Source: an uncultured Planctomycetota bacterium
GTDB lineage: Bacteria > Planctomycetota > Planctomycetia > Gemmatales > Gemmataceae
Direction of reading: 5' to 3'
DNA length: 64,000 nt
Assembly (NCBI GenBank): GCA_963835245.1
Contig: CAWIEZ010000001.1
Coordinates: 156,543-220,542, forward strand
This document shows, piece by piece, positions 14,371-56,243 of this stretch. A model generated the notes under the pieces. It was given only the letters and a program-made list of their open reading frames with translations, was not told where the DNA came from and made no database searches. Both the position numbers and the translations under genes were made by a program. How positions within the stretch are numbered: the stretch's first letter is position 1; each line of letters opens with the position of its first letter.

Positions 14371-14451
14371 GTAGGGTGGGTCGAGCGCAGCGAGACCCAC
14401 CGGGGAGTGGCGGGTTCCCCGGTGGGTCTCGCTGCGCTCGACCCACCCTAC
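14371..14451. repeat. 36-bp perfect inverted repeat (9-nt loop) in a convergent intergenic region
   Basis: gtagggtgggtcgagcgcagcgagacccaccgggga / loop gtggcgggt / exact reverse complement. Lies at the left edge of the lower-GC island. Confidence 0.9.
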
Positions 14452-23767: not shown

Positions 23768-23831
23768 TGGACTTCCCCACGATTAGTGGACAGCCAGTTA
23801 AGGGTGTATACTCACCCTGGGAGGTCCAGCA

Positions 23832-24128
23832 ATGGCGAAAACACGACGCACCTACACCCCGGAGTTCAAGGCGGAGGCTGTCAAGCTCGTCACCGAGCAG
23901 GGCTACTCCGTTGCCGAGGCCGCACGCTCCCTCGGCATCTGCGAGAACCTCATCCGCAACTGGAAGCAAACCCTCGAAGCCCACGGGGAACACGCCTTCC
24001 CCGGTCGTGGCAAGCTCTCCCCCTTCGAGGAGGAGAACCATCGCCTCCGCGCTGAGAACAAACGTCTCTTGGCGGAGCGCGACATCCTAAAAAAAGCGGC
24101 GGCGTTCTTCGCCAGGGAGGCGACATGA
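23832..24128 (+). CDS. IS3-family transposase OrfA (HTH)
   Basis: MAKTRRTYTPEFKAEAVKLV…, leucine-zipper-like C-terminus, typical IS3 OrfA. Confidence 0.85.
   Translation: MAKTRRTYTPEFKAEAVKLVTEQGYSVAEAARSLGICENLIRNWKQTLEAHGEHAFPGRGKLSPFEEENHRLRAENKRLLAERDILKKAAAFFAREAT
24089..24096 (+). promoter_or_regulatory. A AAA AAG slippery heptamer for programmed -1 frameshift (orfA to orfB)
   Basis: ctaAAAAAAGcgg, located just before the orfA/orfB overlap. Standard IS3-family mechanism. Confidence 0.6.
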
Positions 24129-25102
24129 CCTACCGCTTCATCGACCAACACAAGGAGCAATGGCCCGTGCACTGGCTTTGTGACACTCTGGAGGTTTCCC
24201 CCGCCAGCTACTATGCCTGGCGGCGATGCCTCCGCAGCGCAGGGGAGCAACGACGCCACATCCTGCTCGTGGAGATCCGCGCCATCCATGCCCAATTCAA
24301 GGCCCGTTACGGCAGCCCGCGCATCCACGCCGAACTGGTGGCCCGCGGCCACGACTGCTGCGTCAACACCGTCGCCAAACTGATGCGGGAGGCCGGTATC
24401 GCTGCGAAAACCGCGCGGAAGTTCCGCTGTACCACCACGGACTCCGACCACGACTTGCCTGTAGCGGAGAACCTCCTGGACCGCCAGTTTGATCCCGCCG
24501 CTGCCAACGAGTCCTGGGTTGCGGACATTACCTACATCCCGACTCGTGAAGGCTGGCTGTACCTGGCCGCCGTCGAGGATCTGTACGCTCGGCGGGTCGT
24601 TGGCTGGACGATGGCCGAACACAGGGAGAGCCGGTTGGTCGTGGACGCCTTGGCGATGGCCGTGCAGCGACGATTGCCGGGCGAGGGTCTGCTGGCGCAC
24701 TCGGATCGAGGCAGCCAGTACGCCAGCGAACATTACCAACTCCTCTTGGCCAAGCATGGGATCACATGCAGCATGAGTCGTCGGGCGGACTGCTGGGACA
24801 ACGCGCCGATGGAGAGCTTTTTCGCGTCGCTGAAGAAGGAACTGGTCCACGACGCCGACTTCGCCACGCGGTTGGAGGCGCGGGCGGCAATATTCGAGTA
24901 CATCGAGGTGTTCTACAATAACCAACGCCGTCACTCCTCGTTGGGATATGTGTCCCGGCGGAGTACGAGCAATCATCTACCCCTTAACTCCGTGTCCACT
25001 TTTCGTGGGGAATTCCATCAAGTCGAACCCAATTGTTCTTGGCGAGGTCCACGTTGTACCACTTCTTCACTTCGGCTTTTGTCACCGGAGATTCTTGAGT
25101 AA
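24125..25102 (+). CDS. IS3-family transposase OrfB (integrase core, DDE)
   Basis: …WVADITYIPT…GWLYLA…SDRGSQY…NAPMESFF… The ORF has no stop inside the right terminal repeat and reads about 28 codons into flanking DNA. Confidence 0.8.
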   Translation: MTYRFIDQHKEQWPVHWLCDTLEVSPASYYAWRRCLRSAGEQRRHILLVEIRAIHAQFKARYGSPRIHAELVARGHDCCVNTVAKLMREAGIAAKTARKFRCTTTDSDHDLPVAENLLDRQFDPAAANESWVADITYIPTREGWLYLAAVEDLYARRVVGWTMAEHRESRLVVDALAMAVQRRLPGEGLLAHSDRGSQYASEHYQLLLAKHGITCSMSRRADCWDNAPMESFFASLKKELVHDADFATRLEARAAIFEYIEVFYNNQRRHSSLGYVSRRSTSNHLPLNSVSTFRGEFHQVEPNCSWRGPRCTTSSLRLLSPEILE

Positions 25103-26144: not shown

Positions 26145-26197
26145 AAGAAACCACTTCAATTTGCTCCTCACCACAGGCCATTCCCACGCTTTCTTCT

Positions 26198-26314
26198 CGT
26201 TCCCAAGCTCTGCTTGGGAACGCTGGGCGAGAAGCTCCGCTTCCCGTCCCACGCAGCGGCCAGCCGCGAAGCAGAGCTTCGCAACCGTGCGTTCCCAAGC
26301 TCAGCTTGGGAACG
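26198..26314. repeat. REP-like element family F1 (three hairpins, ~120 bp): CGTTCCCAAGCTCTGCTTGGGAACG … CGTTCCCAAGCTCAGCTTGGGAACG
   Basis: Outer hairpins at 26198-26222 and 26290-26314, with a central weaker inverted repeat. The same architecture (ACGC/GCGT in place of AAGC/GCTT) is at 46584-46693. Confidence 0.85.
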
Positions 26315-26498
26315 AGAGAGCAAGAGCCACCCCCAGAATCGGCGCAGGCACCCTGCCGCTCGCGGAGTTGATTGCACCACTGGCGAACGAGTGCGGCTCG
26401 GCATAGGATGGCAGGCGCGGTTCGGAGTAAAGTCAGTTATCCGGCCAGTACCCCCTTCGATATTCCGTCCCGCCCTGTTCCACAAGGGAGACGCCAAC

Positions 26499-30038: not shown

Positions 30039-30755
30039 TCAAGAGGTGCCAACCACGCAGCGCACCTCTCGTCCATCCTCAAGCTCCGCAATGCCTGCGG
30101 ACAACAGATGCGGCTCGCGGATCGACGCTTCCGGGTCGTAGATGAAGACCACGAGAACGCGCCCCTTGCCTTCGCGCCGATAGTACGCCGCATCCTCTCG
30201 AAGCTGCTCGACGAGCGCCGGTTGGGCGAACTTGAGGGTAAGGGCGATGTCCTCGCCGGCCAGCAAAAAGTCCGTCCGCGTGCCGGCGGCGTAGCTCGGT
30301 GTGCGGCATTGCGGGCGGATGTCGTCGAAGTGCAACGGTAAAATCGATCTCAAAAGGTCTTCCAAGTCGTTCTCATCGGCGACGCGGAAGGGCGGACGAT
30401 CACCGTGCCGCACGCGCAGTTGACGGATCGTCAACGGCAGACGGCGCAGCAGATTTTCGAGGACAAGGAGCGCTTCGCGTTTCGGCGGTCGTCGCCGCGT
30501 CGTCCAGGGGAAGGCGGCGCCGCACGCCGGGCAGTAGCGCGGCGCTTGGCGAACGCCCACCGGATGCAGGCCCGGCACGACGATGGCGCCCGGCAGTTCG
30601 CGGCCGCAGGTTTCGCAGCAATCGATGGTGGCGGAGCCACAGCGATCGCAGTGCGTCAAGGCGCGTTCGGGGCAGGTCCGCAGTAGATCCGTGATGACGT
30701 GGCCGTTGCGGCAAACCTGCATCACGTCCTGTGCGCTATCGGCGATACTGGACAT
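30039..30755 (-). CDS. DUF2321-like zinc-ribbon protein with C-terminal putative PD-(D/E)xK-like domain
   Basis: N-terminus has CRNGH…CDRCG…CCETCG…YCPACG (multiple CxxC). C-terminus has …TRTDFLL…GEDIALTLK… consistent with D…(D/E)xK (inference only). Confidence 0.5.
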   Translation of the reverse strand: MSSIADSAQDVMQVCRNGHVITDLLRTCPERALTHCDRCGSATIDCCETCGRELPGAIVVPGLHPVGVRQAPRYCPACGAAFPWTTRRRPPKREALLVLENLLRRLPLTIRQLRVRHGDRPPFRVADENDLEDLLRSILPLHFDDIRPQCRTPSYAAGTRTDFLLAGEDIALTLKFAQPALVEQLREDAAYYRREGKGRVLVVFIYDPEASIREPHLLSAGIAELEDGREVRCVVGTS

Positions 30756-30784
30756 GGTGATTCTCTCTTTCACGGGCGAACACA

Positions 30785-30838
30785 GAGCCGCGACCGTCAG
30801 GGAGCGGGGGCAGCATCGCTCCCTAACGGTCGCGGCTC
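30785..30838. repeat. REP-like hairpin family F2: GAGCCGCGACCGTCAGGGAGCG / loop / CGCTCCCTAACGGTCGCGGCTC
   Basis: 22-bp arms with 1 mismatch. Near-identical copy at 45871-45924. Lies between the flotillin stop and the DUF2321 gene start. Confidence 0.85.
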
Positions 30839-30845
30839 CGTCGCA

Positions 30846-33155
30846 TTACGACTTCACCGGCCCATTTGTCGGCGCCAGCGACGCCTGACGCAGCGATTCC
30901 AACGCTTCGCGCGTCAAACGCTCGCTGATCTCCTTGAGACCGCTGATCTCGCCGCTATCCACCGGCTGGAAGCCGGATTTCTCGGCCACCAGCAGATTGA
31001 GCAACAGTCCCAGCATGCCGGACACGCCGGCATTGCCGCCGGTCTCGCCTTGGCTTCCGGCCATGAACACGCGCTCCGGCACGAGCGGTTGACTACTGTG
31101 AGTCAGTTGCTCCGTGATGATCGACATGGCGTACAATCGTGGATCGCCAAAGGAGGCGATTTTGCGCATCAGCACCGACGCCTCGGACAGACCGATTTGC
31201 ATGACGCGCTGCGCCTCGCCGCGACCGGCGAGGACGCGCTGCCGGCTATCGGCCTCGGCCGTCACCACGGTTTGCTCGGCCTGCCGTCGTGACTTCGCCA
31301 ATTCGGCTTCGGCGTTCACGACCGTTTGCTCGGCCTGTTTGCGCGCCCGTGCCAGATCCGCCTCAGCCTGGCTCTCGGCAATCTGGATTTGCACGCGCGA
31401 ATTGGTCAACTGCGTTTGCATCGCCGCTTGGGCTTGCGCCTCGTTGAGCATGCGCAGTTTGTCGGCAGAGGCGCGCTGGCGATCGTAGGTTTCCAACTGC
31501 TCGATCGACAGTTGACGGACGCGCAGTTGTTCCAGCAGCGTCTCGATTTTGCCGCCGGCCTCGGCGGTGTCCGGCTTGCCGATCAGCACATCGACGCATT
31601 CGATGTCGAAATCGCGGAACTTGCGGCGCAGTTCCTCGCGCGATTCGGCTTGAATGGCGTCGCGCTGATGCAGCAGTTCCAGCATCGTCTTTTTGTGGGC
31701 CACGTCGCGGAAGTAGGCGCTCAGCATCGGATCGAGCGTTTGCGTGATGAGTTTTTTCACGTCGCCGAAGCGCTGAATCACGCCGGGGGCTTTTTGGTAG
31801 TCGATGTGGACGACGACCGACAACGGCAGCAGCGGCTCGTAAGCGTCCTTGGTCACGAGGTCGATGGAGCGCAGGCTTTCGTCGTAGCGGTGCGCTTCGG
31901 AGCGGCCGGTGATCCAGTGCAGGACGAAGTTGGTCGTCGGCACCATGACCATCTGCCCGGCGTAGGTGTTGAAGGGATATTTGCCGGGACCGAGCGGGCG
32001 TTCCCACACGCCGCGTTCGCCTTCGGCGACGCGCTCGCCGTGCCGGAAGGCGTCGCCGGACAGATCGCGGCCGACGCGGCCATAGTAGCTGACCACGACG
32101 CCGACGTAGCCGATCGGCACTACCGTTTTGGGAATCATCTCCACGGTGGCGAACCAGCGGTTGATGAAGTAGGTGCCGTCGGTCAACGGCACGTACTGCC
32201 GGCCACGCCGGCCGCCGGCCCGCAGGAACGCTTCGGGATCCTGATAGTTATTGTGATAATTCGGATCGCTGCTGTCGTTTCCTAACGCCGGAGCGATGAT
32301 CTCGCCGGGCACCAGCGAGGGACCATCTTGGACGGTGACGATGGCGACGGTGTCCACGTCGCGCTGCGCTTCGACATCCAGCGGCACGGGGGCTTCGGGT
32401 ATCGACGCGCCGACGATACGCCCACGCTTGACTCGCTGGGGCGAATCTTCCTCATCCGCCTCGGCCGCCACTGCTTCGCGCACGCGCATCGAAGCGCCGA
32501 CGATAACCGGACTGAAACCATCGATGCGCCGCAGTTCCTGCTGCCAGCTCATGAGGGTCTGATACTCGCGGGTTCCCGTCCGCATGCTCAGGTGATAAAC
32601 GGCGTCCTCCGTGATGACCATGAACAGCGCCGGATTGATGGCGTAAACGCCTTCGCGCAGGATGGCCCGTTGCCGGCCGCGCTGGCCGCAGACGCTCGGC
32701 GTCCCCTCCTCGCTCGGCGAACCGAGGAAAGTCCGCGCATCCTGGAAGTTGTTGCAGGAGACGACGCGGCCTAGCGTCTGACTGGGCGGCAGCGGTTCGC
32801 CGTCGCGCGCATAGATGTAGCCGATCTTGCCCTGCGGGATGGTGACGAGCGGAACTTTGTGAAGGCGATATTGCCATCTCCAAAGTCCGAAATGCAGACC
32901 GCCGCGCAGCAGATCCGCTTGATAGCCGGCTTCGCCGTCCAGCGCGATGATGCGGCCTTCCGGCACCGAGCCACTGCCTGACCACAGTTTCTCGACGACG
33001 GCCGCTTGCTGGTTCGGGATATAGCGCACCGTCAGCCAGACGATCAGCAACAGCAAGACCATGACGATCAGCAATCCCACGAGGATTTGACTCGCGAGCG
33101 GAGAGAACGGGAGCGTAATGTCTCCGCCGTTAGCCAACAGAAGCAGAGTGGACAT
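30846..33155 (-). CDS. flotillin-like SPFH/band-7 domain protein
   Basis: N-terminal TM (LASQILVGLLIVMVLLLLIVWL), SPFH region, long coiled-coil A/E/Q-rich segment (…AEQTVVNAEAELAKSRRQAEQTVVTAEAD…). Confidence 0.75.
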   Translation of the reverse strand: MSTLLLLANGGDITLPFSPLASQILVGLLIVMVLLLLIVWLTVRYIPNQQAAVVEKLWSGSGSVPEGRIIALDGEAGYQADLLRGGLHFGLWRWQYRLHKVPLVTIPQGKIGYIYARDGEPLPPSQTLGRVVSCNNFQDARTFLGSPSEEGTPSVCGQRGRQRAILREGVYAINPALFMVITEDAVYHLSMRTGTREYQTLMSWQQELRRIDGFSPVIVGASMRVREAVAAEADEEDSPQRVKRGRIVGASIPEAPVPLDVEAQRDVDTVAIVTVQDGPSLVPGEIIAPALGNDSSDPNYHNNYQDPEAFLRAGGRRGRQYVPLTDGTYFINRWFATVEMIPKTVVPIGYVGVVVSYYGRVGRDLSGDAFRHGERVAEGERGVWERPLGPGKYPFNTYAGQMVMVPTTNFVLHWITGRSEAHRYDESLRSIDLVTKDAYEPLLPLSVVVHIDYQKAPGVIQRFGDVKKLITQTLDPMLSAYFRDVAHKKTMLELLHQRDAIQAESREELRRKFRDFDIECVDVLIGKPDTAEAGGKIETLLEQLRVRQLSIEQLETYDRQRASADKLRMLNEAQAQAAMQTQLTNSRVQIQIAESQAEADLARARKQAEQTVVNAEAELAKSRRQAEQTVVTAEADSRQRVLAGRGEAQRVMQIGLSEASVLMRKIASFGDPRLYAMSIITEQLTHSSQPLVPERVFMAGSQGETGGNAGVSGMLGLLLNLLVAEKSGFQPVDSGEISGLKEISERLTREALESLRQASLAPTNGPVKS

Positions 33156-33561
33156 AGTGACACCTGTGGCGGCAATGCCACGAAAGAGAAGGGGGCTGCA
33201 CTTCGTCTTGAGAGCGAGACGGGTGTGCCCTTTCACGTTGGCCCGAACACCGCATCCGGGTCCGCCTACGAGGTTAGCTGACGGGCTAGGATGCGAAAGT
33301 ATCCCGGTCCCCGTGGACCTTCGCCCCGAGAGGCCGGCTCTCACCAGCCTGATGGTTCCCCCGTTCGCGCATGCACCGCAGCGCGATTCGGCTGCACTGT
33401 AGAGTTATTCTAGTTCCGCGTTCACTTCTTGCAAAAGAAATCACTTTTTCCCATCTGTTCGTCCGTTCAGAGGGGACGATTCTTTCGACACGCAAGGAAT
33501 CTTCGCCACTACAATGGGATTGGTTTCCGGTGATTACTTTTCCTTACGATGCGGAGGAGAC

Positions 33562-33813
33562 ATGGCCGACTCAAACGAACAGGCTGATTTGCGGCAGCGC
33601 GTGGCGCGGGTTGTCGCCGAGGAGGTGGCTCCGCTGTTGGGCATGGACGGCGGCGGCATTGATGTAGTGGCGGTCGAGGAGGGCGTGGTGCAGGTTCGGC
33701 TGCACGGCGCTTGCGGCTGCTGTCCGGGTTCGGTGCAGGCCATCATCGTGGGCATCGAGGAGGAACTGCGCCGGCGTGTGCCGGAAGTCGAGTATCTTGA
33801 AATGGTGCCGTGA
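33562..33813 (+). CDS. NifU-like (Nfu C-terminal domain) Fe-S assembly protein
   Basis: …VRLHGACGCCPGSVQAIIVGIEEEL… CxxC motif of the NifU C-terminal domain. GGAGGAGA RBS. Confidence 0.7.
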   Translation: MADSNEQADLRQRVARVVAEEVAPLLGMDGGGIDVVAVEEGVVQVRLHGACGCCPGSVQAIIVGIEEELRRRVPEVEYLEMVP

Positions 33814-33834
33814 AGGAAGTAAATAGGAGTCGTT

Positions 33835-35421
33835 TTAGGCGAAAATACGATAATCAATGTCCGGAAATAGATTGTGCCGCCCTTCGATGTCGTTGAGCCA
33901 GCTTTCGTCGATGCAATCCTGTCGGATCGACTCATAGAGATGATTGAAATTGTTCACATGAACGCGCGTGCGTTCCTTGGCATACTCGACCATGGTGCCG
34001 GTCTTGAGGATGAAGGCCCAATCGCTCGACTGTGCCAACAGTAGTTCGCGGGCGGCCTGATTGAGAGCGCGGCGGCGCAGCGGCGACGGCTCGGCATTGA
34101 CGCGGGCCAATTCGATCATGCGCTCCGCCCCCTCGTGTAAATGACGATAAATCCAATCGTTGGAACCTTCCAACCATACCTCGCAGTAACCCTTATATCC
34201 CCAACTCGATAGCGTCGGCTGTGCCACTTGCAGGCGCGGATGACGGTCGAGGTATTCGGGTACGGTGATGGTTTTCACCGTTTGTTGATCGAAGTGCATT
34301 TTCCGCAAGAGGAAATTGATCCAATCCGGTCCCTCGAACCACCAATGGCCGAACAACTCAGCGTCGTAAGGCGCGACAATCAGCGCCGGCCGGCCGTCCA
34401 TCGAGCCGGACAGCCATTCAACCTGTTTTTCGCGGTTGAACATGAAATTGCCGGCGTGTTCGGCGGCTTTTTCCATGGCCGCCTTGGGATTATAAGGCAA
34501 TTTATGATCGGTGCGCCCGGTGATCTTGTAATACTTGATGCCGAGCAAACTGCGAATGCCGGTTTGGTGCAGATGGGGTTTGAGGTACTCATAATCGAGA
34601 TCGAAGCCAACGTCGCGGTAGAAATCGCGGTAATTATAATCGCCGGGATAGCCTTCGATGGCGCTCCAAACCTGTTTGGATGATTCGCTGTCGCGGGCCA
34701 GGCAGGCGACGTTGCTTCCGGGCACCATCAGCGGAGCATAGACGCCGAAGCGCGGCCGCGGCTCGGCGAACAAGACGGCGTGCGTATCGGTGAAAAAATA
34801 GCGAATGCCGGCGTGTTGCAGCTGTTGCTCGACGCCCGGGGCGTAGCCGCACTCCGGCAGCCAAATGCCGCGCGGCCGCCGGCCGAAGTGACGCTCAAAC
34901 TCACGACAGCCAATCTCGATCTGCGCCCGCCGCGCGTTCTCCTGGTGGATCATCAGCGGCAGAAAACCGTGCGTGGCGCCGCAAGTGATTAATTCCAGTT
35001 TGCCCGAATCGAAGAAACGCTTGAAACCGTGCAGCAGATTGTTGCCGTATTGATTGACGAACACCTCGCGGGCGCGCGTGAAGCGGCGCTGATACATCTC
35101 GGCGAGGGGGTGAAACTCCGGCTCGAAGCGCGTGCGTTCGATTTCCTTACCGGCCAAGGCGATGAGGTTGTCGAGATGACGCAGGTAGCGCGATTGCAAC
35201 AGCGGATCGCCGAGCATGGCGGCCAGCGTCGGCGTCACCGACATGGTGAGACGCCAATCGACGCCGTCGCGCTCCAGTCCCTCGAAAACTTCGAGCAAAG
35301 GAATATAGGTTTCGGTGATGGCTTCGTAGAGCCAATCTTCTTCGAGGAAATCCTCGTATTCGGGATGGCGAACGAACGGCAGATGCGCGTGCAGGACCAG
35401 GCAGAGATAACCGAGCGGCAT
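33835..35421 (-). CDS. GH57-family 1,4-alpha-glucan branching enzyme
   Basis: LVLHAHLPFVRHPE…, …ITCGATHGFLPL…, …PYDAELFGHWWFEGP… canonical GH57 motifs. Confidence 0.85.
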   Translation of the reverse strand: MPLGYLCLVLHAHLPFVRHPEYEDFLEEDWLYEAITETYIPLLEVFEGLERDGVDWRLTMSVTPTLAAMLGDPLLQSRYLRHLDNLIALAGKEIERTRFEPEFHPLAEMYQRRFTRAREVFVNQYGNNLLHGFKRFFDSGKLELITCGATHGFLPLMIHQENARRAQIEIGCREFERHFGRRPRGIWLPECGYAPGVEQQLQHAGIRYFFTDTHAVLFAEPRPRFGVYAPLMVPGSNVACLARDSESSKQVWSAIEGYPGDYNYRDFYRDVGFDLDYEYLKPHLHQTGIRSLLGIKYYKITGRTDHKLPYNPKAAMEKAAEHAGNFMFNREKQVEWLSGSMDGRPALIVAPYDAELFGHWWFEGPDWINFLLRKMHFDQQTVKTITVPEYLDRHPRLQVAQPTLSSWGYKGYCEVWLEGSNDWIYRHLHEGAERMIELARVNAEPSPLRRRALNQAARELLLAQSSDWAFILKTGTMVEYAKERTRVHVNNFNHLYESIRQDCIDESWLNDIEGRHNLFPDIDYRIFA

Positions 35422-35697
35422 TGTGTGGCTCCCCTTCTTGCTGTTCACCACAAGGATGCGGGTGGAGTTAGGGGTATGACTTTTCCACCGCGAGTTCAAG
35501 TTTAGCCGCGCCCCACGGAGGAGCATTTGGGTGGCCGAGTCGCTCCGCCACGGGCCGCGCACTCGCGGAGCGACTGCTCCCCACTCGGCATCCACGCTCG
35601 CGCCGAATCCGAATTGTCGCGGGAACCCTGTTCCTGGTATAATTGTCCTGTTGACGCCCCTTGTAAGGGCAGAACGATTATTCCCATGAGGAACGCG

Positions 35698-36807
35698 ATG
35701 AACGCTGATTTACGACGCCGTAGCGATGAGGTTTTGAGCCGTTTGACCCAGCTGCGGGACTCTCTTTGACATCTCCAGCAAACAATCCCTGCGCGAACAA
35801 CTCAACGCCCGCATGGGGCAGCCCAATTTCTGGGACAATCCCGAAAGGGCGCAGCAAATCATCGCGCAGTTGAAGCCGCTCAACGGTCTACTCAAGCCCT
35901 ACGAGGATCTGGAATCCGCCGCCGGCGACGTGCAAGCGCTGGTCGAGTTGGCCGACGAAGACTCCAGCCTGGAGTCCGAACTGGAAAGCGAACTGACGCC
36001 GTTCGAGAAGCGTCTGGACGACTTCGAGATGCGCGCCATGCTCGATGGACCGCAGGACGCCAGCAATGCCTATCTGCGCATCCAGGCCGGCACTGGCGGC
36101 ACCGAAGCCTGCGATTGGGCGCAGATGCTCATGCGCATGTACGCGCGCTGGGCCGAGAGTCACGGCTACGAAGTCGAAATCGTCGATGAATTGCCCAACG
36201 AGGAAGCCGGCATCCGCAACGCTACTTTGCACATCAGCGGCGATTATGCTTACGGCAACCTCCAGAGCGAGGCCGGCGTGCATCGCCTAGTGCGCATCAG
36301 TCCGTTCGACGCCAACGCGCGGCGGCAAACATCGTTCGCGGCGGTGGACGTGATCCCGGAGATCGAAGGGACAATCGAGATCGAAATACGATCCGATGAA
36401 CTGCGGCGCGACACCTTCCGCAGCGGCGGTCCCGGCGGTCAGCATCAGAATAAGACCGAGAGCGGCGTGCGCTACACGCACCTGCCGACCGGAATCGCCG
36501 CCGAGAGCCGCAGTCAACGCAGCCAACACAAAAACGATGAGATGGCCCTGAAAATGCTCAAGGCCAAGCTCTATCAGATCGAGGAGCAGAAGCGCGAGCC
36601 GAAGTCGAGAAGCTGTACGACGAAAAGGGCGAGGTGGCCTGGGGCTATCAGATCCGAAATTACGTCATGCAGCCGTACACGCTGGTCAAAGACGTTCGCA
36701 CCGAGGTGCAGACGCCGCAAGTGCAGAACGTCCTCGACGGCGAAATTGATGACTTCATTCAAGCGTATCTGCGTTTGAAGGCGGAGCGGCGGCACAAGAG
36801 AAAGTAA
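35698..36807 (+). CDS. prfB: peptide chain release factor 2, with programmed +1 frameshift plus one extra apparent 1-nt deletion near 36598
   Basis: ATG at 35698, 23 codons, then CTT TGA C at 35764-35770 and continuation in +1 (GGQ motif [24 protein letters not shown]). The C-terminus is only colinear (…[28 protein letters not shown]…) if one base is restored at ~36598. Confidence 0.9.
35764..35770 (+). promoter_or_regulatory. prfB programmed +1 frameshift site CUU UGA C
   Basis: Exact canonical heptanucleotide, with an in-frame UGA after 23 codons. Confidence 0.85.
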
Positions 36808-36984
36808 GAAGCGTGTCCTTTTGCCGACAAGCCCAGAGCGCCCGCGATGGGGCGAACCCGTCGCGGGCGCTCCGGGCTTGTATATTATCTCGTTCGTTCT
36901 GGTTTGTCCGTCAAATCGTAAGCTAGAATCTTTACAGATCGTCAAATCGTCCCCTCAACTATTCTCTCCTTCGAGGATGTTTTT

Positions 36985-39900
36985 ATGAATTGGCGGCTGC
37001 GCGGATTCCTCGGACTTTTTCTGTTCCTAATCGTGGTCGGTCCAGTTGGCGGCGTGAAAAATCTGGTGCCGGACTCTTCTTTCGAGGAGCCGATGGAGAA
37101 AGATCGCTGGGGCCACGTCTTCGCCAAGTGGGGAGGGTGGATTTATGAGGGCGAGTGCGAATTTCGCGTTTCCGACGTTGCTCACAGCGGCAAACATTCG
37201 CTCCTCATGATGGGTGGAACCAATCCGAAAATCCGTGCTTGGCCGGAGAAACTTTCCCTGTCTCCGGGGCGCTACCGCATCATTGCTTATCTGCGCGGTT
37301 TGGACATTGGTACCAATGCGGATGGCCAATCGACGGAATTAATGTTTGACGAGAAATACATTGCAGCTGAACAAGAAAGGTACCTTCGGCTGGAGCCGGC
37401 TAACGTATGTCGGCGAGATTACGAAAGAGTGCGACAATGGCCATCCCAGTTTCGGCTTGATGGCTCCCGGCTACCTCTGGGTCGATGATGTGACCGTCGA
37501 GAAGGTCGGCGCCGAGACGGCGCTGACGCCGGAACCGATTCTTGGCAAGGAAGAGAAAACAATTGAACCGCCGGGACGCTTGAGCGATGCCGCCATTCAT
37601 TGCCCGGAGTGCGGCTATCGCAATCTGCCGGCGTGGCAGCACTGCTATGCTTGCGGCTCCGCGCTGGAGACGAAGAAGACCGCCCCGGCTGGCGAAGCAA
37701 TCAAACGCATCATCTCTTTCGAGAATAAGCAATCCCTTCGACGGCGGCACCGTGACGGACAAGCATGCCACGCACGGTGGCAAAGCTCTGCGTCTCGATT
37801 GCGGTTCTGCTGTTATGGATACTGCTCAGAACTGGAGCGGTTACGACTATCTCAAGGCCGATGTATATACTGACGCTGACTAAGCCGCTGGAATTGTATG
37901 TTGAGGTTAGGGATCGTCAAACACGCGATTATTGGACGCGCGTTAATTACACCACTGTCATACCACCCGGCGCCAGCACGCTTATCATTCCCACGGCTCT
38001 TTATGTCGGCGAAAAGGCGCGTCCCGGACGAGCGTTGCTGCTGGATGGCATCACACGTCTAGTATTCTCCATCGGCGACAAGCCGGAGGCACCGCTTTTC
38101 ATCGATAATATCCGGCTGGAACGCGACACTGAAACGGCGCAGCGTCCAGTTCGATGGTTTGTGGGCCTTCGATGTCGGTCCAATCGGCCAGTCCGGTCAT
38201 GGAAGGTTTCACACCGCTGGACATGAGCAAGCGATACACCAAAGGCCGCGGCTACGGTTGGAAGGACGCTCAATTCTGGCGCGCCTTCGACGCTCTGCAA
38301 CCCGATCCGCTCTACCGCGATTTCCTCTGCATCGAAAAGGGCGGATTGGCTCTCGACGTGCCCAACGGCAAGTATCACGTTTTCGTCAACATGGATTCGC
38401 CCTCCGGCTTCTGGGGCGAGTATCAGATTTATCGCCAGCGAGCGCTGATCGTCGAAGGCGTTCGCCATGAAGATACGATGGATTTGGCATCGTTCAAAAA
38501 ATGTTATTTCCACAATTGGGATAAAGAAGACCTTCCGACTGAGGACACCTTCGATAAATATCAGATACCGTATTTCCAAGAAAAGCACGTTACGGCTGAA
38601 GTCAGCGATGGGCAGTTAAACATCGAATTTGAGGGCGAGAATTGGGCCTGCTGCGTATCGGCCATCATCGTCTATCCCGATAGCAAGGCGGCGGAGGGGC
38701 AACGGTTCCTCGATTTCGTCAAGGAACGGCGGCGTTTCCATTTCAACAATGCCTTCAAGCGAGTGCTGCATACGCCTAGCGGCGATGCGCTGCCGAACTA
38801 CCGAACCGGAGAAACAGCGGGGTTTCGTCGTCTTCGCGCGCGATTGGATGCGCGATGTCTACCACAACGATCGCCCTCTGCCCGGCGAGCGCGTCGAGCG
38901 TTTGAGCGCATCGGCTTTTGCTGGCGAATATGAGCCGATTACCGTTTCGCTCGTCCCCCTCAAAGACACCTGCTCCGTGACAGTCACTATCAGCGATCTG
39001 AATGGTCGAGAAGGTGCATCGATCTCCGCCCGACAGATCGACGTTGGTTACGTTCAGCACCGCATCACGCGCGTCAACGCGGAGGGCAGCGTCTACACGA
39101 TCGCGCCGCGGCTGCATCATCCCGCGCAACCGGCGCCGCTGCCGGCCGGCGTGACGCGCACCTTCTGGCTGACGGTCAAGGTCGCCGGCCGACGCTCGGC
39201 CCGGCGTCTATCGCGGCACGGTGCGGATTCAAACCGAGCGCGGCGGCGATTGCTCGCTGCCGCTGGAATTCACGGTGCGCAAGGGGACGCTCGATGCCGT
39301 TGATGTTCCGGCCGGCCCTTTCGGCTACACCATCGATTTGCCGTGGTACGCTGAAGAGGCCGACCGATTGGAACCGCGATCTGGCCGTCAAATCGCTGCG
39401 AAGACTGCGCGAATACGGCTTCACCACCGTCAGCGGCTTGCCCGTCGTCGCCTATCAAGGCTTCAAGGACGGCGTGCCGCAGTTCGACTTCGCGCAGGCC
39501 GACGCCCAGATGAAGCTGCTGAAGGACAACGGTTTCCGCATGCCGGTCCTCTCCTACTGTCCCTTCAACGGCCTGAGTCTCTACTACAAGGACGAGGACG
39601 CGATGCACGACGCCGGCTTCACGGATTACAGCCGATTCATCCGCGCCGTGTTCGGCGCGGTGCAGAAGCACGCCGAAGCGGCGGGCTGGCTGCCGGTGTA
39701 CTGGAACATCGGCGATGAGCCAGTCGGCGACGATGTGGAACGCAGCGCCGAGAACGCCGAGGCGTATCGCAAGGCTTTTCCCAAGGGTCCGCCCTGGTTC
39801 ACCGCCGCCAGTTCGTTTCGCGGCTCCAAGCGCGACGATCCGCACTTCCGGCTGTCGCGCGCCCTCCACGTCGCCGACTGGAACGATCACGACGAGGCCA

Positions 39901-40363
39901 GCGTGAATCTTCTCCACGAAGCGGGCGGCGATTGGGCCTTCTACAACGGCGGCAATCGCTGGACCTATGGCGTTTATCTGTACAAGGCCGCCAAGCAGTT
40001 CGACATGAAGTTCCGCATCGTCGTGGCACTGGAACGCCGCGGCCGGCGATCCGTATTACGCGCTGGATTGCCGCGAGGACGATTACGCTTGGTGTAGCGC
40101 GAGTCCCGGACGGCGAGTTGATTTCAACGCCGCACTTCGAGCGGCTGCGCGAGGGACTGGACGATTATCGCCGCCTGTTGACATTGGCGCGGTTGGCCAA
40201 AGAACACGCCGGCATACCGGCCGCGCGGATGGCGGAGAAATTGCTCGCGGAAATTCTCGGCGGATTTCGGCTCGGCGATCGGGAAATAAAGGGCGTGGAG
40301 AGTTTCCCGAAGCTGCGTGAGCGCCTGGACGCGGTGATCGAGCGGCTTCGCGACGAAGGATAG
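36985..40363 (+). CDS. large secreted multidomain protein (CBM-like N-terminus, glycoside-hydrolase-like TIM-barrel region), multiply frameshifted
   Basis: Signal peptide. The colinear reading requires about 7 frame changes (ORF-track pieces 36985, 37346, 37587, 37765, 38154, 38629, 39294, 39932). YWNIGDEP resembles the clan GH-A NEP motif. Confidence 0.45.
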
Positions 40364-40378
40364 CGCGACACAACTTTT

Positions 40379-40450
40379 CTTTGCCAGCCCGCAGCGCCAG
40401 CAAGGGTGAGTCATCCCTTGCTGGCGCTGCGGGCTGGCAAAGTTTTAGCG
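40379..40450 (+). terminator. REP-like hairpin family F3 (28-bp arms) followed by a TTTT tract; candidate bidirectional terminator between convergent genes
   Basis: CTTTGCCAGCCCGCAGCGCCAGCAAGGG-tgagtcat-CCCTTGCTGGCGCTGCGGGCTGGCAAAG-TTTTAG. Related copy at 56195-56243. Confidence 0.6.
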
Positions 40451-43400
40451 CCCGGACGACCTGCTTAGATCGAGACGCCGCAGCGACTCCTTGGCTTCGC
40501 GTGTCAATCGAGATTCCGGAGCGCCTTTCGCCAGTTCCTCCAGCAGCCGCCGCGCTTCGGAATTGCCGATGTCCTCCAACACGCCCACGGCGCGCAACGA
40601 ACGCAACCGTTCTGGCCGCGTTACCGGGCCGCGCAATGCGCTCCAACACTGCTTCCACACGGCGGCGCATTTCCAATGCCGGCTTGTTCGCTAACGTCTC
40701 TCGCAACGCTGGCTCGGCCAAGTCGCCGAGTTCGGCCAACTCTTCCTGTGCCTTTTCGCGCACGGTGAATGGTTCGCTCTCCAGGTCGGCCAACAATCGG
40801 CGTAATCGCCGCGGATCGGCTGCTTTGGCCGGATGCAAGCGCTCCTTCAACAGCGTCATTGTCTCCGCCGGCGCTGCCGCCAGCGTCCAGCGGACCGCGA
40901 AGGCTGTGCGGGCGTCGGCGGCGAGATCGTCCCAGGCGCGCCGCAGACTCTCGGCATCAAGCGCGGCCGGTCGATCCTCGCCTCGGACAGCGGCCACGTC
41001 CCAAATCAACAGGGTGCTATCGTACAAACCGGAAATGAGCCGGCGGCCGTCGGGCGAGAATGCCAGCGAAGTCGTCGAGGAGCCGAAGTCTTTAAAACGA
41101 TGCAGCTCTTTGCCTCTTCTGAGATCCCACAAGAGAATTTCTCCCTGCGGAGCGATCGCGGCCAGCAGACGGCCATCGGGAGAAACGGCGGCTTTGGCCG
41201 AGAGGTAAATGGAGATCGGCAAATCGAGCAACTCGCTCGCCGTCAACACTTCCCACAAGCGCAGCGTTCGGGTGAAACCGTTCGGCACCGCCGCCGACGG
41301 TGCCGAACCCGGCGCCGGCGGCGGTGCCGAAGTCGATGTGTCCGAGAGCAGTAAACGTCCATCGAGCGAGAAGGCCCGTGGGTTGGTTTCTCCTTTAAGG
41401 ATCGGAAAAGTCAGCAACCGTTCGCCCGTCTCCACATCTTCCAGGCGCATCGGTTCGCGTTTCACGCTGGGGAAGGCGAATACCTTGGCGTCCGGCGATA
41501 CCGCGATCTCCGGAAGGCTACTCTGAAAGCGCCAATTGGCGGCGAAACAGTTGCTTTCGCGCGATCGTATCCCAGCAGGTCATCCGCCAATCGTTCTCTC
41601 GCCCTCCTCCTGGCCCGTAGCCTCCCGGCGACAAATTGCGGAGGACGATCGCTTTGCGGCCGTCGCGGGATACGTGCATGCCCATGTAGGGATGCCCGTT
41701 CCGCCGCCTCCAATCGTTCGTTTCCAAGACGTGCAGTTCGCGGCCGGTGGCGGCGTCGGAGAGAAGCACCTTATCATCCCAGCACGAAATCAACGTCTTT
41801 CCATCGACCGAAAGGACGCACTCCAGCACTGTACTCGGTGAGCGACGCAGCAGCGCGAGCTGCCTGCCGGATGTCGCGTCCCAAATGCGGATCGTGCCAT
41901 CCAAACCGCCGCTAGTTGTGACGCGCTTGCCGTCAGGCGAAAACGTCGGCGTGCGGACCCAGTTGGTGGAATGGCCTTCGGCTTCGGGCTTCAATTCGCC
42001 TGTGGCCACGTCCCACAGGTGGATGACGCCACACATGCCCTCCGCGATGGCCAGCGTCTTGCTGTCCGGCGCGAACGACGCCGCGGTGGAGTTGAACGAC
42101 CGGCCCTCTCCCTTGAGGTGCCTGCGGTCTCGGCCACTGACCGTATCCCAGAAGTGGACCTCCCGCTTACTGACTGTGGCCAGCATTTTGCTGTCCGCTG
42201 TGAAGGCGACGGACTCGATACCGTCCTGATCGGCGGCGACGGTGTGCGCGGCCTTTCCGGTCATCAGATTCCACAATTGCACGAAAATCTTGTCGGCGGC
42301 GTCCCTAGATAGCGAGGCCAGCCAACAGCCATCGGGCGAGAAAACCAGGCTGTTATGGAAAGCGAAACGGCCCTCGGTTTTGAAGACCCATCGTTCTTTG
42401 CCGGTGGTCATATCCCAGACGTGGGCGGCCCCCGATTTATCGCCGGCAGCCAAAACATTTTTCCCCACCGCACAAGGGGCAGGGGTGTCGCGAAAAGGAT
42501 CGGACAGGTTCTTCTCGGTGAAGCGCCGCTTCCGGCCGGTCGCCATCTCGTGAAGGTTGATTGCTCCTTTGCTCTGCCAAACAACCAGCGGCTGTCCGTC
42601 CACCGTCCAACCCAGACAGGATATGTTCTCCAATTCCACCTCGGCTGTTTTTTGTCCACCGTACACGTCCCAAATTTGCACGAGGGATTTTTGCTCCATC
42701 CGAAAGCCGGATTTCTCCCAGACGACTTTACTCCCTTGAGTCGCTGCTGCCAGTAGCCGCTTGCTATCCGGCGAAAATGCGATGCGCCAAAACGACGTAG
42801 CGTGTAGACGAATAGTTTTTCTCAATTTGCCGGTAGCCGTATCGAATATCCACAGCCCGTCATCGGACGCGGCAGCGATCGTCTTGCCATCGGGAGCAAA
42901 CGCCAGTTCCCGCACATCTTGCGTATCGATGCGAAAACGCCGCGTGCCCAGCCGTGCCACGGCTCCCGGCGGCAGCGGCTCGCCGTCCCGATCGCGGCGC
43001 GGTTCGTCTTTCGCTTGCGCCGGCGGCGCGGCTGGTGAACCCACGGCAGGTATTTCCTCCCGCGGGGCACGGAGCATCGACAGACCGGCCGCCATACCAA
43101 CCGCCGCCACAATCACAGCCAGCCCGGCGATCTTCAGTTTCAACGCCGGCATCATCCCACCGGCCAGGGCGTCGATTGCGGCGGGAACCGTTCCGCTCAG
43201 ACCCCGAACGCCGTCGGCCAACAACTTCTCCGGCACTGCCGCAGGCGCCAGCAGCATCACGGCTCCCACGGACAGATCCAAACCTCGTTGGCTCAACCGC
43301 TCGCGTAGTCGTTCGCGGCCGCGCGTCAACCGGCCGCGCAGCGAACCGATGCTCCAGCCGAGTTGCCGCGCCGCCTCCTCGATCGTCCGCCCTTGCATCA

Positions 43401-43878
43401 AGCACAGCAACACCGGCAATCGATACACCTCCGGCAAACGACCGATCTCCTCATCGATCAACGCGAGCAATTCGCGGCCGCTGAGTACGTCCAGCGCGGG
43501 CGGTTGCGGATCGATCGGCTCCGGCGTCTGGGCATTGGTCTGCATCCGCTGTCGCCGCCGCAGCGCCGCGCGAGCTTTCCGCGCCAGCCGCCGAGCCACG
43601 GTATGCAAAAAGCCGGCCAACGATTCGGGCTGACGCAAAGGAGAAGTCTGACGCGCAAGGACGAGAAACGTCGCTTGGAAGACATCTTCGGCTTCTTGCA
43701 CGTCGCCGAGAATGCGGCGACAGACGCCGAGAACCATCGGTCCATGCCGCGCCATCAGAGCGGTGAAAGCGTGTTGATCGCGCTGTTGCGTCCAACGGGT
43801 CAACAGCGCGTCATCCGGCGCCGCCGGCGCGGCGAGGCGATGCAGATGCGTCAGAAGAGATCGGCTGTGTGCGGACAT
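40445..43878 (-). CDS. ECF sigma-70 (regions 2/4) - TM - WD40 beta-propeller fusion protein; apparent frameshifts near 41490 and 40650
   Basis: N-terminus …[34 protein letters not shown]…[30 protein letters not shown] (sigma region 2/4), one TM, many WD40 units. The conserved C-terminal tail (…[29 protein letters not shown]) is in a third frame. Confidence 0.7.
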
Positions 43879-44061
43879 GGCATGATCCTTATGCGGGCAA
43901 CAACGAATGTCCTCTGCCCTTATTGTGTCCCGCCAGCCTTCCGCGCACACTCTTTTTTTCGTCATGAACTTCACGGCGCCGAGGACAGGACGCCGCCGCG
44001 TCCACTTTTTTCGTTCGACAAGGATAATTTCCCATGCACGCGCACTTCCTATAGTATGTAA

Positions 44062-45150
44062 ATGATGCGACGACTCCTTTTCCTTTTTCTCATTGTGGCC
44101 TGTCTGCCCGCTCCCGCCCGCGCCGGCGACAAGGCGTGGATCGCTGTCTCAAAGGACAACAAAGGTTTTGTCCTCAAGCCGTCCGGGAAGCGGTTCGTAC
44201 CGTGGGGCTTCAACTACGACCACGATGAGAAGGGCCGGCTGCTCGAAGATTATTGGCGCTCGGAGTGGCCGAAGGTCGAGCGCGACTTCCGCACGATGAA
44301 GAAGCTGGGGGCCAACGTCGTCCGCATTCACCTGCAACTCGGCAAGTTTTTGGACGGCCCGAATCAGGCGAATGAGAAGTCTCTCGACCGGCTGACGAAG
44401 CTCTTGCGGCTGGCCGATGAAGTCGGACTCTACCTCGACGTGACCGGCTTGGGCTGCTACCACAAGGCCGATGTGCCGGCATGGTACGACAATCTCACCG
44501 AGCGAGATCGCTGGGAGGTGCAGGCTCGATTCTGGCGAGCCATCGCCGAGCGCTGTGCCGGCAGTTCCGCCGTCTTCTGCTACGATCTGATGAACGAGCC
44601 GATCGTGCCCGGAGGCAAGGGAAACAATTGGCTGGCACCGGCCTTCGCCGGCAAGCATTTCGTCCAGTTTATCGCGCGCGACCAGCAAGATAGACCGCGG
44701 CCCGACATTGCTCGCCAATGGCTGCGACATCTGACGGCTGCCATCCGCGAGAAGGACAAGCGACATCTGATTACGGTGGGTCTGGTGGCTTGGAGTCTGG
44801 ATCGCCCCGGCCTGACTTCCGGCTTCGTGCCGGAGAAGGTGACGGCCGACCTCGATTTCGTCAGCGTCCACTTGTATCCCAAAAAAGGGAAGGTGGACGA
44901 GGCGCTCAAGACGTTGGCCGGTTTTGCAGTCGGCAAACCCGTTCTGATCGAGGAGACGTTCCCGCTGGCATGTTCCGCGCAAGAGCTTGACGAATTTATC
45001 GAGGCGTCGGCGAAGCATGCCGCTGGCTGGATCGGCTTTTATTGGGGCAAAACTCCCGAAGAATTACGTCGCCCTGAAACAATCGGGGATGCTATAACGC
45101 GCGAGTGGCTGGAGCTGTTTCAGAAGCGAGCGAAAGCGCTGGGGAAATGA
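44062..45150 (+). CDS. secreted glycoside hydrolase family 5-like (cellulase-type) protein
   Basis: Signal peptide. NVVRIHL…, …YDLMNEP… (NEP acid/base), …LIEETF… pattern. Confidence 0.75.
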   Translation: MMRRLLFLFLIVACLPAPARAGDKAWIAVSKDNKGFVLKPSGKRFVPWGFNYDHDEKGRLLEDYWRSEWPKVERDFRTMKKLGANVVRIHLQLGKFLDGPNQANEKSLDRLTKLLRLADEVGLYLDVTGLGCYHKADVPAWYDNLTERDRWEVQARFWRAIAERCAGSSAVFCYDLMNEPIVPGGKGNNWLAPAFAGKHFVQFIARDQQDRPRPDIARQWLRHLTAAIREKDKRHLITVGLVAWSLDRPGLTSGFVPEKVTADLDFVSVHLYPKKGKVDEALKTLAGFAVGKPVLIEETFPLACSAQELDEFIEASAKHAAGWIGFYWGKTPEELRRPETIGDAITREWLELFQKRAKALGK

Positions 45151-45160
45151 CGGCGCCCCG

Positions 45161-46540
45161 TTACACCATTAGCAGACTCGCCACTAGCACGGCGATGATT
45201 CCGGCCAGCAGCGGAAGCGCGAGACGGCGCACCAGCTGCAAGGGATGGACCTCGGCCAGCGAAGCGGACATCAGCGTCACCGCCGCCACTGGCGACAGAG
45301 TGCGCCCGGCCGACGCCGACAGCGCGATCAACGCGCCCAGCCGCAGCGGATCGTAGCCGAGCCGATGAGCCGGCTCGACAAAGAACACGAATAAACTCTG
45401 CGTCGCCGCCATGCCGGAGCCGCACAGCAGAGCGAACAACAGCGGCAAAATAACCGCCGCCGGTGTCAGCAAGCTCGGCCATGTTTGCAGCGCCTGAGCG
45501 AGCAACGTCGCCAAGCCGATGAGCTTGATTGCCTCGCCGAAACAATTGGCGGCGACGATCAACGAGATGATCCGTGCGAAGGCGAAGCCGACACCCTCGA
45601 AGAACGTCTCCGCGGTGCGCGGCGACTTGCCGGCGATCCGTCAGCGCGGCGGCGGCCACGCCGAGGAGCATGGCCGCGCCGATCAGCCGGCTCTCGAAAA
45701 CCGCGCGCAATTCCGACTCCGTGCCCTTGAAGTGGGCCACGTCCACCAGCCAAGTAACCGGCACAGAAAACAGACGAAACGGCTCCGGAAAGGCGGTTAA
45801 AAACAACAACACAATCGGCACGAACGGCATGACCGCCTTAAAAGGATTGATGCGGAACGGATCTTCCTCAGAGCCGCGACCGTCGGGGAGCGGTTTGGCC
45901 TCCGCTCCCTGACGGTCGCGGCTCAGCTTGGATTCGCGCACGGACTCAGCAGCCAGAAAACCACCGTCGCCACGAACAGTTCGATAACCAATAGAGGCAG
46001 CGCGTGGACAATCCAACGGTCGGCCGAGAACGGCACCTTCGCGGCCTCGCTGACGGTGCGCACTTCCGGCGCACCGGGGTTCAGCAAATCGCCGCCCAGC
46101 GAGGAGCCGAGCAGCAACGCCGCGCCGATGGTGACGGGAGAAATCCGCGCCGTCCGCAACAGCGGCACTAGCACCGTGCCCACCAACACCGCCGTACTCA
46201 TCTGGCTGATGACGGGGACGTTCACCAGGACGCCGACAAGCACGGCGCCCGGAATCAACAAGGGCCGTACTCGCCGCATGGGCCGCACCAGCAGATGAAC
46301 GAGGTGTTGATCGCAGCCGGTTTGCCGCAGAACGTAAGCGAATCCGAGCGAGCAACCCAGAGGAATGGCGAACTGCTCGTTGACCAGTGTGGTTAGGAAC
46401 TTTTGCACGATGACATCCGGCCGGCCGGCCAAACAGCCCAACGCCAGCGCCGCCAACAACAACGTCAGACGCACATCGGCGCGGCGCACGATGGCCAAGA
46501 TGACCACGACGATCACGAACAAGCCCGCGGATAACGTCAT
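45161..46540 (-). pseudogene. ArsB/NhaD-superfamily anion permease, disrupted (two or more frame changes; REP-F2 hairpin at the break)
   Basis: Hydrophobic multi-TM segments in three different frames (46540-45923, ~45850-45600, 45562-45161). The stop of the first piece lies inside the F2 hairpin at 45871-45924. Confidence 0.55.
45871..45924. repeat. REP-like hairpin family F2, second copy
   Basis: GAGCCGCGACCGTCGGGGAGCGG-tttggcct-CCGCTCCCTGACGGTCGCGGCTC. Compare 30785-30838. Confidence 0.85.
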
Positions 46541-46583
46541 GTGCAAAATCCGAAAACAAGGCGGGAAACATCTCATTCATCCT

Positions 46584-46693
46584 CGTTCCCACGCTCCGCG
46601 TGGGAACGCACGTCTGGACGCTCTGCGTCCCGTACCGCCGAAACGCGACGCGGAGCGTCGCCTGCTTGCGTTCCCACGCGGAGCGTGGGAACG
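46584..46693. repeat. REP-like element family F1, second locus: CGTTCCCACGCTCCGCGTGGGAACG … CGTTCCCACGCGGAGCGTGGGAACG
   Basis: Outer hairpins at 46584-46608 and 46669-46693, with a central GACGCTCTGCGTC…GACGCGGAGCGTC inverted repeat. Lies in the divergent intergenic region between the permease and pepF. Confidence 0.85.
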
Positions 46694-46773
46694 AGAAGGC
46701 GGCGAACATCTCATTTGATATTATGCCTTTGAATTGCTTTCGGATTTCGGATTTTGAATTGAAGGATCAAACC

Positions 46774-56194: not shown

Positions 56195-56243
56195 CCAGCC
56201 CGCCGCGCCAGCAAGGGATGCCCTTGCTGGCGCGGCGGGCTGG
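56195..56243. repeat. REP-like hairpin family F3, second copy: CCAGCCCGCCGCGCCAGCAAGGG-atg-CCCTTGCTGGCGCGGCGGGCTGG
   Basis: 23-bp perfect arms, immediately downstream of the SGNH hydrolase stop. Related to 40379-40442. Confidence 0.85.

Follow-up and report, generated by a model that had tools for sequence, protein, structure and literature searches.

A class 3 REP-like dimer read in frame within dcuC of a Gemmataceae bacterium, and the likely assembly origin of the frame breaks beside it

Introduction

Has a short palindromic repeat broken the transporter gene in which it lies, or do the repeat and the broken reading frame have separate causes? The question is raised by dcuC of an uncultured Gemmataceae bacterium (Planctomycetota), in a stretch of 64,000 nucleotides (nt) of GenBank assembly GCA_963835245.1 (contig CAWIEZ010000001.1, positions 156,543 to 220,542), called here the window, whose own numbering is used throughout. 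The window holds two copies of a hairpin, F2, of which copy 1 (30785-30838) lies between genes and copy 2 (45871-45924) lies inside dcuC. A first-pass annotation, made from the letters of the DNA, had described both as hairpins resembling repetitive extragenic palindromes (REPs) and had set copy 2 exactly at the break point of a disrupted permease gene, proposing either that a small palindromic element had inserted into the coding sequence or that the structure had induced a sequencing or assembly error. REP elements with their REP-associated tyrosine transposases (RAYTs), like the insertion sequences (IS) IS200/IS605, are units of single-stranded DNA (ssDNA) that are cut and joined at their foot. 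Our analysis makes it likely that the F2 hairpins are dimers of a known REP-like unit of the class 3 type, that copy 2 is a tolerated cassette read in frame, and that the frame breaks next to it are indels of the assembly.

Results

Two hairpins built from a published REP-like unit

Both hairpins were found where they had been described. Four copies of the 22-mer GAGCCGCGACCGTCRGGGAGCG are present and form two inverted pairs (30785-30806/30817-30838 and 45871-45892/45903-45924), compared with a chance expectation of 0.02 in shuffled sequence, and a repeat search extended the arms to 25 nt in one hairpin (92% complementary, 10-nt loop) and to 23 nt in the other (96%, 8-nt loop). Folded as ssDNA, both reach -29 to -34 kcal/mol (z -8 to -10), a stability equalled by none of 200 shuffles.

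Class 3 TnpA_Y1 proteins, a group of single-tyrosine HUH enzymes, were defined by Quentin et al. (2018, BMC Genomics 19:475; PMC6006769), who found them mainly in Planctomycetes, Acidobacteria and Proteobacteria and described atypical hairpins with a CnGA foot on the flanks of their genes, with about 600 copies in Solibacter usitatus. Table S1 of that study lists CAGAGCCGCGACCGTCAGGGAGCGATCG for S. usitatus and CCGAGCCGCGACCGTAAGGGAGCGGA for Legionella pneumophila, as well as a P. limnophilus variant, CCGGAAGC-GTGA-GCGACGG, which has a different stem sequence and the same fold shape (PMC6006769). Every F2 arm, foot included (CAGA, CGGA or CTGA), equals the S. usitatus and L. pneumophila units letter for letter. 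Because of this identity, of feet that fit CnGA and of a predicted ssDNA fold that agrees with the published class 3 shape, we assign F2 to the class 3 REP-like repeats.

Judged from its sequence, each F2 hairpin is a dimer in which two copies of one 25-nt REP-like unit stand inverted, tail to tail, with the feet outside. The unit has CnGA as its 5' foot, and its imperfect stem, CCGCGACC/GGGAGCGG, encloses a GTNA tetraloop. A single unit, the left unit of copy 1 included, folds as .....((((..((....))..)))) as ssDNA. The two units of copy 1 leave a 10-nt loop between 22-nt arms: the left one (30783-30807, + strand) has the foot CAGA (30783-30786) followed by GCCGCGACC GTCA GGGAGCGG and equals the S. 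usitatus class 3 entry CAGAGCCGCGACCGTCAGGGAGCG, and the right one (30816-30840, - strand), inverted with respect to it, has the foot CGGA (reverse complement at 30837-30840) and the loop GTTA. In copy 2, the unit on the + strand (45869-45893; foot CAGA at 45869-45872, loop GTCG) is the distal arm in gene sense and encodes PLPDGRGS, and the unit on the gene strand (45902-45926, - strand; foot CTGA, reverse complement at 45923-45926, followed by GCCGCGACC GTCA GGGAGCGG) encodes (L)SRDRQGAE. These two dimers account for all four units in the window.

Beyond the window, a scan of one genome per species placed the 18-base core GCCGCGACCGTNNGGGAGCG at 120 loci or more. The matches listed fall mostly in Bryobacterales/Solibacter (Acidobacteriota), in Planctomycetota (Phycisphaerae, Planctomycetaceae and Gemmataceae) and in Legionella and other Gammaproteobacteria, with few elsewhere, a phylum range that fits the one reported for class 3. 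Among these listed matches (120 loci) we counted 45 tail-to-tail dimers, 22 head-to-head units and 77 single units.

Other identities for the hairpins were rejected. Neither copy is followed 3' by a T-run on either strand, which speaks against an intrinsic terminator; an integron attC site was set aside because sequence as well as structure is conserved and cassette arrays are missing, and a CRISPR repeat because there is no regular array. The classical GTAG/CGTC REP family does not fit either, as the units have a CnGA foot and an imperfect stem instead of a perfect one of 8-9 bp. A possible in-frame unit at another locus, L108, was discarded because its long open reading frame (ORF) is spurious, an Arg/Pro-rich reading that precedes the true gene. 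No match to the hairpin turned up among plasmids by BLAST, and Rfam gave none for the hairpins at the gathering threshold, only generic hairpin matches far below it. Across the entire window, Rfam returned only a c-di-AMP riboswitch, away from the hairpins.

Copy 1 is intergenic, 5 nt past the stop codon (30846-30848) of an SPFH/Band_7 gene and 27 nt ahead of the ATG (30755) of the next gene on the same strand. This position, just after a stop codon and between co-directional genes, is the usual site of a REP. An empty-site test found no relatives of the flanking genes at 90% identity or above. The downstream gene (30042-30755, - strand) combines DUF2321 with a DpnII/MboI-like restriction endonuclease domain, and the SPFH/Band_7 gene (30849-33155), after which copy 1 follows, is immediately preceded by the c-di-AMP riboswitch (ydaO-type; 33248-33403, - strand), which scores 64.6 bits where the gathering score is 38.

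The dimer in dcuC is read in frame in intact orthologues

The gene that contains copy 2 (45161-46540, - strand) is split into three frame segments, placed by orthologue alignment: A (46540 to about 45940), B (about 45935 to 45624) and C (45622 to 45161). When joined, these match the NCBIfam profile NF037994 (DcuC_1, C4-dicarboxylate transporter) at 203.6 bits (cutoff 100), covering positions 1-388 of 389 in a single stretch, and Pfam DcuC (PF03606) at 45.2 bits (cutoff 23.1). The top homologues are Gemmataceae DcuC transporters of 448-474 amino acids (aa) with 70-78% identity. By these matches the permease gene is that of a DcuC transporter of a Gemmataceae bacterium; its earlier label, ArsB/NhaD-type, had named the right superfamily (ion transporter, IT) but not the type that the profile match gives. 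The closest relative is P0127, an intact 462-aa DcuC encoded on Logan contig L207; it and the 205-aa N-terminal fragment of the window gene fall into one 90%-identity cluster. Between 47903 and about 45160 the window and L207 are collinear, and the two dcuC genes are 92-95% identical at the DNA level outside the loop. A metagenome scan yielded no relatives for a single DcuC protein query and only five close orthologues for an alignment query.

Read in frame, copy 2 encodes SRDRQGAEAKPLPDGRGS in the hypervariable central loop of dcuC, and intact orthologues show the pattern SRDRxGAE..PLPDGRGS at the dimer; protein alignment places the hairpin-encoded peptide at the same position in P0023 (SRDRKGAETAPLPDGRGS), P0036 and P0005. 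We surveyed this loop in 47 aligned sequences, namely the window gene and its 46 closest orthologues. The peptide is present, intact or decayed, in 29 (the window gene and 28 orthologues), 15 carry an unrelated loop type (RAEARYAKEAEAR) and 3 are ambiguous; homologues below about 65% identity showed no hairpin peptide. The DNA of nine orthologues contains the dimer itself, with site and frame unchanged and a loop of 6-10 nt (mostly 8), and the feet found in orthologues are CCGA, CAGA, CTGA and GCGA. At least nine dimer-bearing orthologues are intact genes of 452-464 aa, and decayed dimers are seen in some lineages (L205, L206, P0019 and P0031). Since the dimer is in frame in many intact Gemmataceae orthologues, copy 2 is an insertion that the coding sequence tolerates, not one that breaks the gene, contrary to what had been claimed for it.

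The arms of the dimer are more alike than the gene around them. In pairwise comparisons of the nine dimer-bearing dcuC genes, identity reaches 86% in the arms, 75% in the rest of the gene and 38% in the loop between the arms. At third codon positions, identity is 0.84 in the arms versus 0.57 elsewhere in dcuC, and none of 403 blocks of 16 consecutive third positions attains the arm value (maximum 0.71). Because this third-position identity exceeds that of the rest of the gene, the arms are held at the nucleotide level, be it by selection, gene conversion or renewal.

Two variants of the loop were also observed. The dcuC of P0002 (on L201) carries a third REP unit, a second right arm placed after a 15-nt spacer and still in frame (…PLPNGRGSDEAKAPLPDGRGS…). 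In L124, P0002 and P0026, seven codons between FWLL and the dimer are missing, which fits a deletion between GCTGAG repeats.

Two single-nucleotide frame breaks lie outside the hairpin

The N-terminal ORF of the permease (46576-45923, - strand) does terminate at the second hairpin, as had been reported, its TGA (45925-45923) lying on the hairpin edge. This TGA is the first stop in the wrong frame and is supplied by the CTGA foot of the repeat. Alignments place both 1-nt indels that change the frame outside the hairpin, so that the hairpin itself is not the break point. Break 1, a missing base, precedes the hairpin by 12-19 nt in gene sense, as the alignments with orthologues and with the closest relative show. 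As the last aligned residues of frame A, FWLLS, end at 45944 and frame B starts (ESKL-SRDRQ) with an E codon at 45935-45933, the base must be missing within 45936-45943 (- strand), 5' of the dimer, our best guess being GCC GAA read as GC-GAA. This position falls within a replaced block of 83 nt (see below), for which a multiple of 3 would be needed; the orthologues read ...RAES(K/Q)x-SRDR. Break 2 lies, in gene sense, about 250 nt downstream of the hairpin: at 45623-45625 (about 45624, - strand), where alignment with L207 sets CAAG[T]CGCC against CAAGCGCC, the window has one base too many.

Other genes of the window are split as well: a PSCyt1-PSCyt2/PSD1 gene near 3075, a BD-FAE hydrolase gene near 13375, where one frame matches Pfam positions 1-79 and the other 79-215, and a Ser/Thr kinase-TPR gene near 50520. 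At least three unrelated genes of the window thus show a single frame break amid conserved domains. Compared with L207, the ratio of nonsynonymous to synonymous differences per site (pN/pS) amounts to 0.17 in segment A and 0.11 in segment C, with 0.14 in the tract around the dimer and 0.00 in the remainder of segment B; because these values are low, every piece of dcuC has evolved as coding sequence in the homologous frame. Consensus errors are the likelier cause, since other genes of the window are broken alike and no dcuC piece exceeds a pN/pS of 0.17, and the dcuC frame breaks are most likely residual indel errors of long-read assembly. The length of the source NCBI contig, 1.76 Mb (1,761,349 bp), agrees with this. 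The earlier proposal of a sequencing or assembly error is strengthened in this respect, although nothing shows that the structure induced it. Of the five frame breaks in the window, four are no more than about 5 nt away from a GCGC, versus 14% of positions, which hints at a systematic, possibly methylation-linked, basecalling error. Programmed frameshifting was dropped as an explanation, as no feature supports it and other genes are broken too.

The dimer-bearing loop replaces an ancestral loop

P0127 has the ancestral loop, in an intact gene that lacks the dimer. The close DNA match between the window and L207 extends up to ...CTGCTGAGTC and resumes from CGTTCCGC; the interval between the two measures 83 nt in the window, dimer included, and 93 nt in L207. 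The idea of a small palindromic element in a coding sequence therefore holds insofar as a palindromic repeat lies within the gene and the closest relative is without it, but the orthologue alignment does not show the simple insertion of about 50 bp that had been envisaged: 83 nt stand in place of a 93-nt ancestral loop. The block belongs to a divergent tract (45770-45950, - strand), made up of the block and about 75-100 nt downstream of it. The first 72 nt of this downstream part are only 82% identical to L207, with 0.51 synonymous differences per synonymous site (pS), versus 92-95% identity and a pS of 0.09-0.19 in the flanks of the tract.

Dimer loops in dcuC are alike across clades (AGAAAGCC, encoding GAEK), and they are short, the 20-nt cores of the window dimer being 10 nt apart versus a core spacing of 11-61 nt in dimers elsewhere (45 among the matches listed). 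Codons outside the dimer (ESKL) are common to the window gene and other dimer-bearing alleles, and the window gene shares ESKL-SRDRQGAE with P0044. The short loops, their similar sequences, the ESKL flanks and the replacement, rather than addition, of sequence together favour a single origin followed by cassette exchange. The dimer-bearing loop is probably a cassette that is polymorphic among dcuC alleles and was moved by recombination between them.

Other palindromes and a mobile element in the window

Distinct palindromic repeat families are unusually numerous in the window. One inverted repeat at 14371-14451, perfect over 36 nt, starts GTAGGGTGGGTC...GACCCACC and looks like a classical GTAG-tagged REP dimer, of another family than F2. 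Another palindromic family is present at 46582-46695 and 26195-26317, with arms CTCGTTCCCACGCTCCGCGTGGGAACG in the 46582 copy. That copy lies between dcuC and an M3 peptidase gene and, because 85 nt of it (46609-46693) are missing in the close relative L207, is a recent gain or loss. Further REP-like hairpins occur at 40379-40442, 56195-56243, 36827-36881 and 3216-3314, two of which share CCAGCCCGC(A/C)GCGCCAGCAAGGG. An IS3-type element occupies 23802-25102 (+ strand); its orfA and orfB frames overlap, it has an integrase core, and it seems to have inserted at the 3' end of a SWIM-like ORF (23062 to about 23790).

Discussion

We propose that F2 units would be non-autonomous elements of ssDNA that a class 3 enzyme cuts and joins at their foot, much as in the REP/RAYT and IS200/IS605 systems. 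Copy 1 would then be an ordinary intergenic dimer just after a stop codon, and the cassette that contains copy 2 would most likely have reached this lineage by homologous recombination with a dimer-bearing allele. The apparent disruption of dcuC would stem from the 1-nt deletion upstream and the 1-nt insertion downstream of the dimer. Several observations weigh against this account. No class 3 TnpA_Y1 gene, sought as an ORF with HUH and Y motifs, was found in the window or beside the units in the fetched loci, and mobilisation by such an enzyme therefore rests on the literature. No donor allele for the divergent tract was found, as none of 12 sampled orthologues is closer to the window there than L207. 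Break 1 is within the imported block, and a 1.4-kb gene with two indels exceeds the average rate of the window. On bootstrapped neighbour-joining trees of dcuC, presence and absence of the dimer require 4-6 changes, never fewer than 4 in 200 replicates, which would also fit repeated insertion.

Some of these points would suit other explanations. If dcuC were a genuine and recent pseudogene, the imported 83-nt block would have arrived one base short and a random 1-nt insertion would have followed. The place of break 1 within a divergent block, the occurrence of two indels in a single gene and the NCBI gene calls, which are the fragments themselves (205 and 133 aa), would agree with this, yet the homologous frames hold no in-frame stop or other defect besides the two indels, the low pN/pS extends to the segments downstream of the breaks, and unrelated genes in the same 64 kb show the same type of break; we therefore regard a pseudogene as somewhat unlikely. 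The patchy distribution of the dimer, together with its absence from the closest relative, could instead reflect fresh transposition, with a class 3 enzyme repeatedly targeting the same site, and IS200/IS605-type enzymes are indeed target-specific. Such insertions would have to account for the unusually short loop in every dcuC copy, for loops that read alike across clades, for ESKL codons held in common with other dimer-bearing alleles, for the loss of about 20 ancestral codons where an addition would be expected, and for the divergence of the adjoining tract, which makes this origin quite improbable.

A different possibility is that the hairpins are host regulatory structures, terminators or messenger RNA (mRNA) stabilisers, and not transposase-linked repeats. 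Copy 1 has the classic REP position between co-directional genes, and as RNA the hairpin would be very stable (-53 kcal/mol). The missing T-runs, the lack of an Rfam family at threshold and the location of copy 2 within a coding region speak against regulation, and an identical sequence across phyla fits recognition by a shared enzyme better than local regulation; a link to a transposase is in any case compatible with such a role, since REPs can do both. We consider a purely regulatory nature very improbable. It is also conceivable that the dimer in dcuC is maintained by selection, given arms so alike at third positions around a loop that drifts, and that the dimer-bearing loop moves as a cassette among Gemmataceae alleles, which we hold to be unlikely. 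Were it true, the cassette would be exchanged by recombination or be re-inserted site-specifically by the class 3 Y1 enzyme, and a function of the hairpin or of the peptide would be implied, for instance as a translational pause between the transporter halves, as control at the mRNA level or as an enzyme docking site.

Returning to class 3 REP dimers, F2 can be compared with several known systems. The REPIN/REP-RAYT systems of Proteobacteria (TnpA_REP, class 2), reportedly described by Bertels and Rainey, by Nunvar and by Ton-Hoang, resemble F2 in that two inverted units form a larger hairpin, non-autonomous and mostly intergenic after genes, and in their presumed mobilisation in trans by a single-copy Y1 HUH enzyme. 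F2 differs from them by its CnGA rather than GTAG foot, its imperfect stem with a tetraloop and the class 3 of its presumed enzyme, and whereas REP/RAYT pairs are usually lineage-specific, the F2 unit sequence is common to several phyla. With the published class 3 repeats, F2 shares unit sequence, predicted fold and phylum range (Planctomycetes, Acidobacteria and Proteobacteria, including Legionella); what differs here is the arrangement as tail-to-tail dimers, the Gemmataceae genome and the location of one dimer in frame within a gene, while the published account treats units beside the transposase gene and at high copy number and does not describe coding insertions (PMC6006769). Intragenic REPs and Rickettsia palindromic elements (RPEs) are similar to copy 2 in being palindromes read in frame in a gene that stays intact, whose product gains a short hydrophilic stretch where the site permits it (Di Nocera et al. 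2013, PMC3733652; Ogata et al. 2000, cited there). RPEs, at 100-150 bp, belong to an unrelated sequence family, and the dcuC insertion differs from them in being common to many orthologues, polymorphic and conserved in its arms at the nucleotide level. The repeat family (PMC6006769) and in-frame intragenic REPs and RPEs (PMC3733652) are thus already known; new are the dimers in Gemmataceae, the in-frame dcuC cassette that is polymorphic among orthologues, and the conservation of its arms at the nucleotide level.

These results remove a false lead, as dcuC is not broken by the hairpin and its frame breaks resemble assembly errors of a kind that also affects other genes of the contig. They tie an unannotated hairpin family of Gemmataceae to the published, barely studied class 3 TnpA_Y1 system, and they provide a clean natural example of a repeat that is translated in frame, shared and polymorphic among orthologues, with arms conserved beyond synonymous sites. 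The dcuC example may be used to ask whether intragenic REPs are kept by selection, by gene conversion or by re-insertion.

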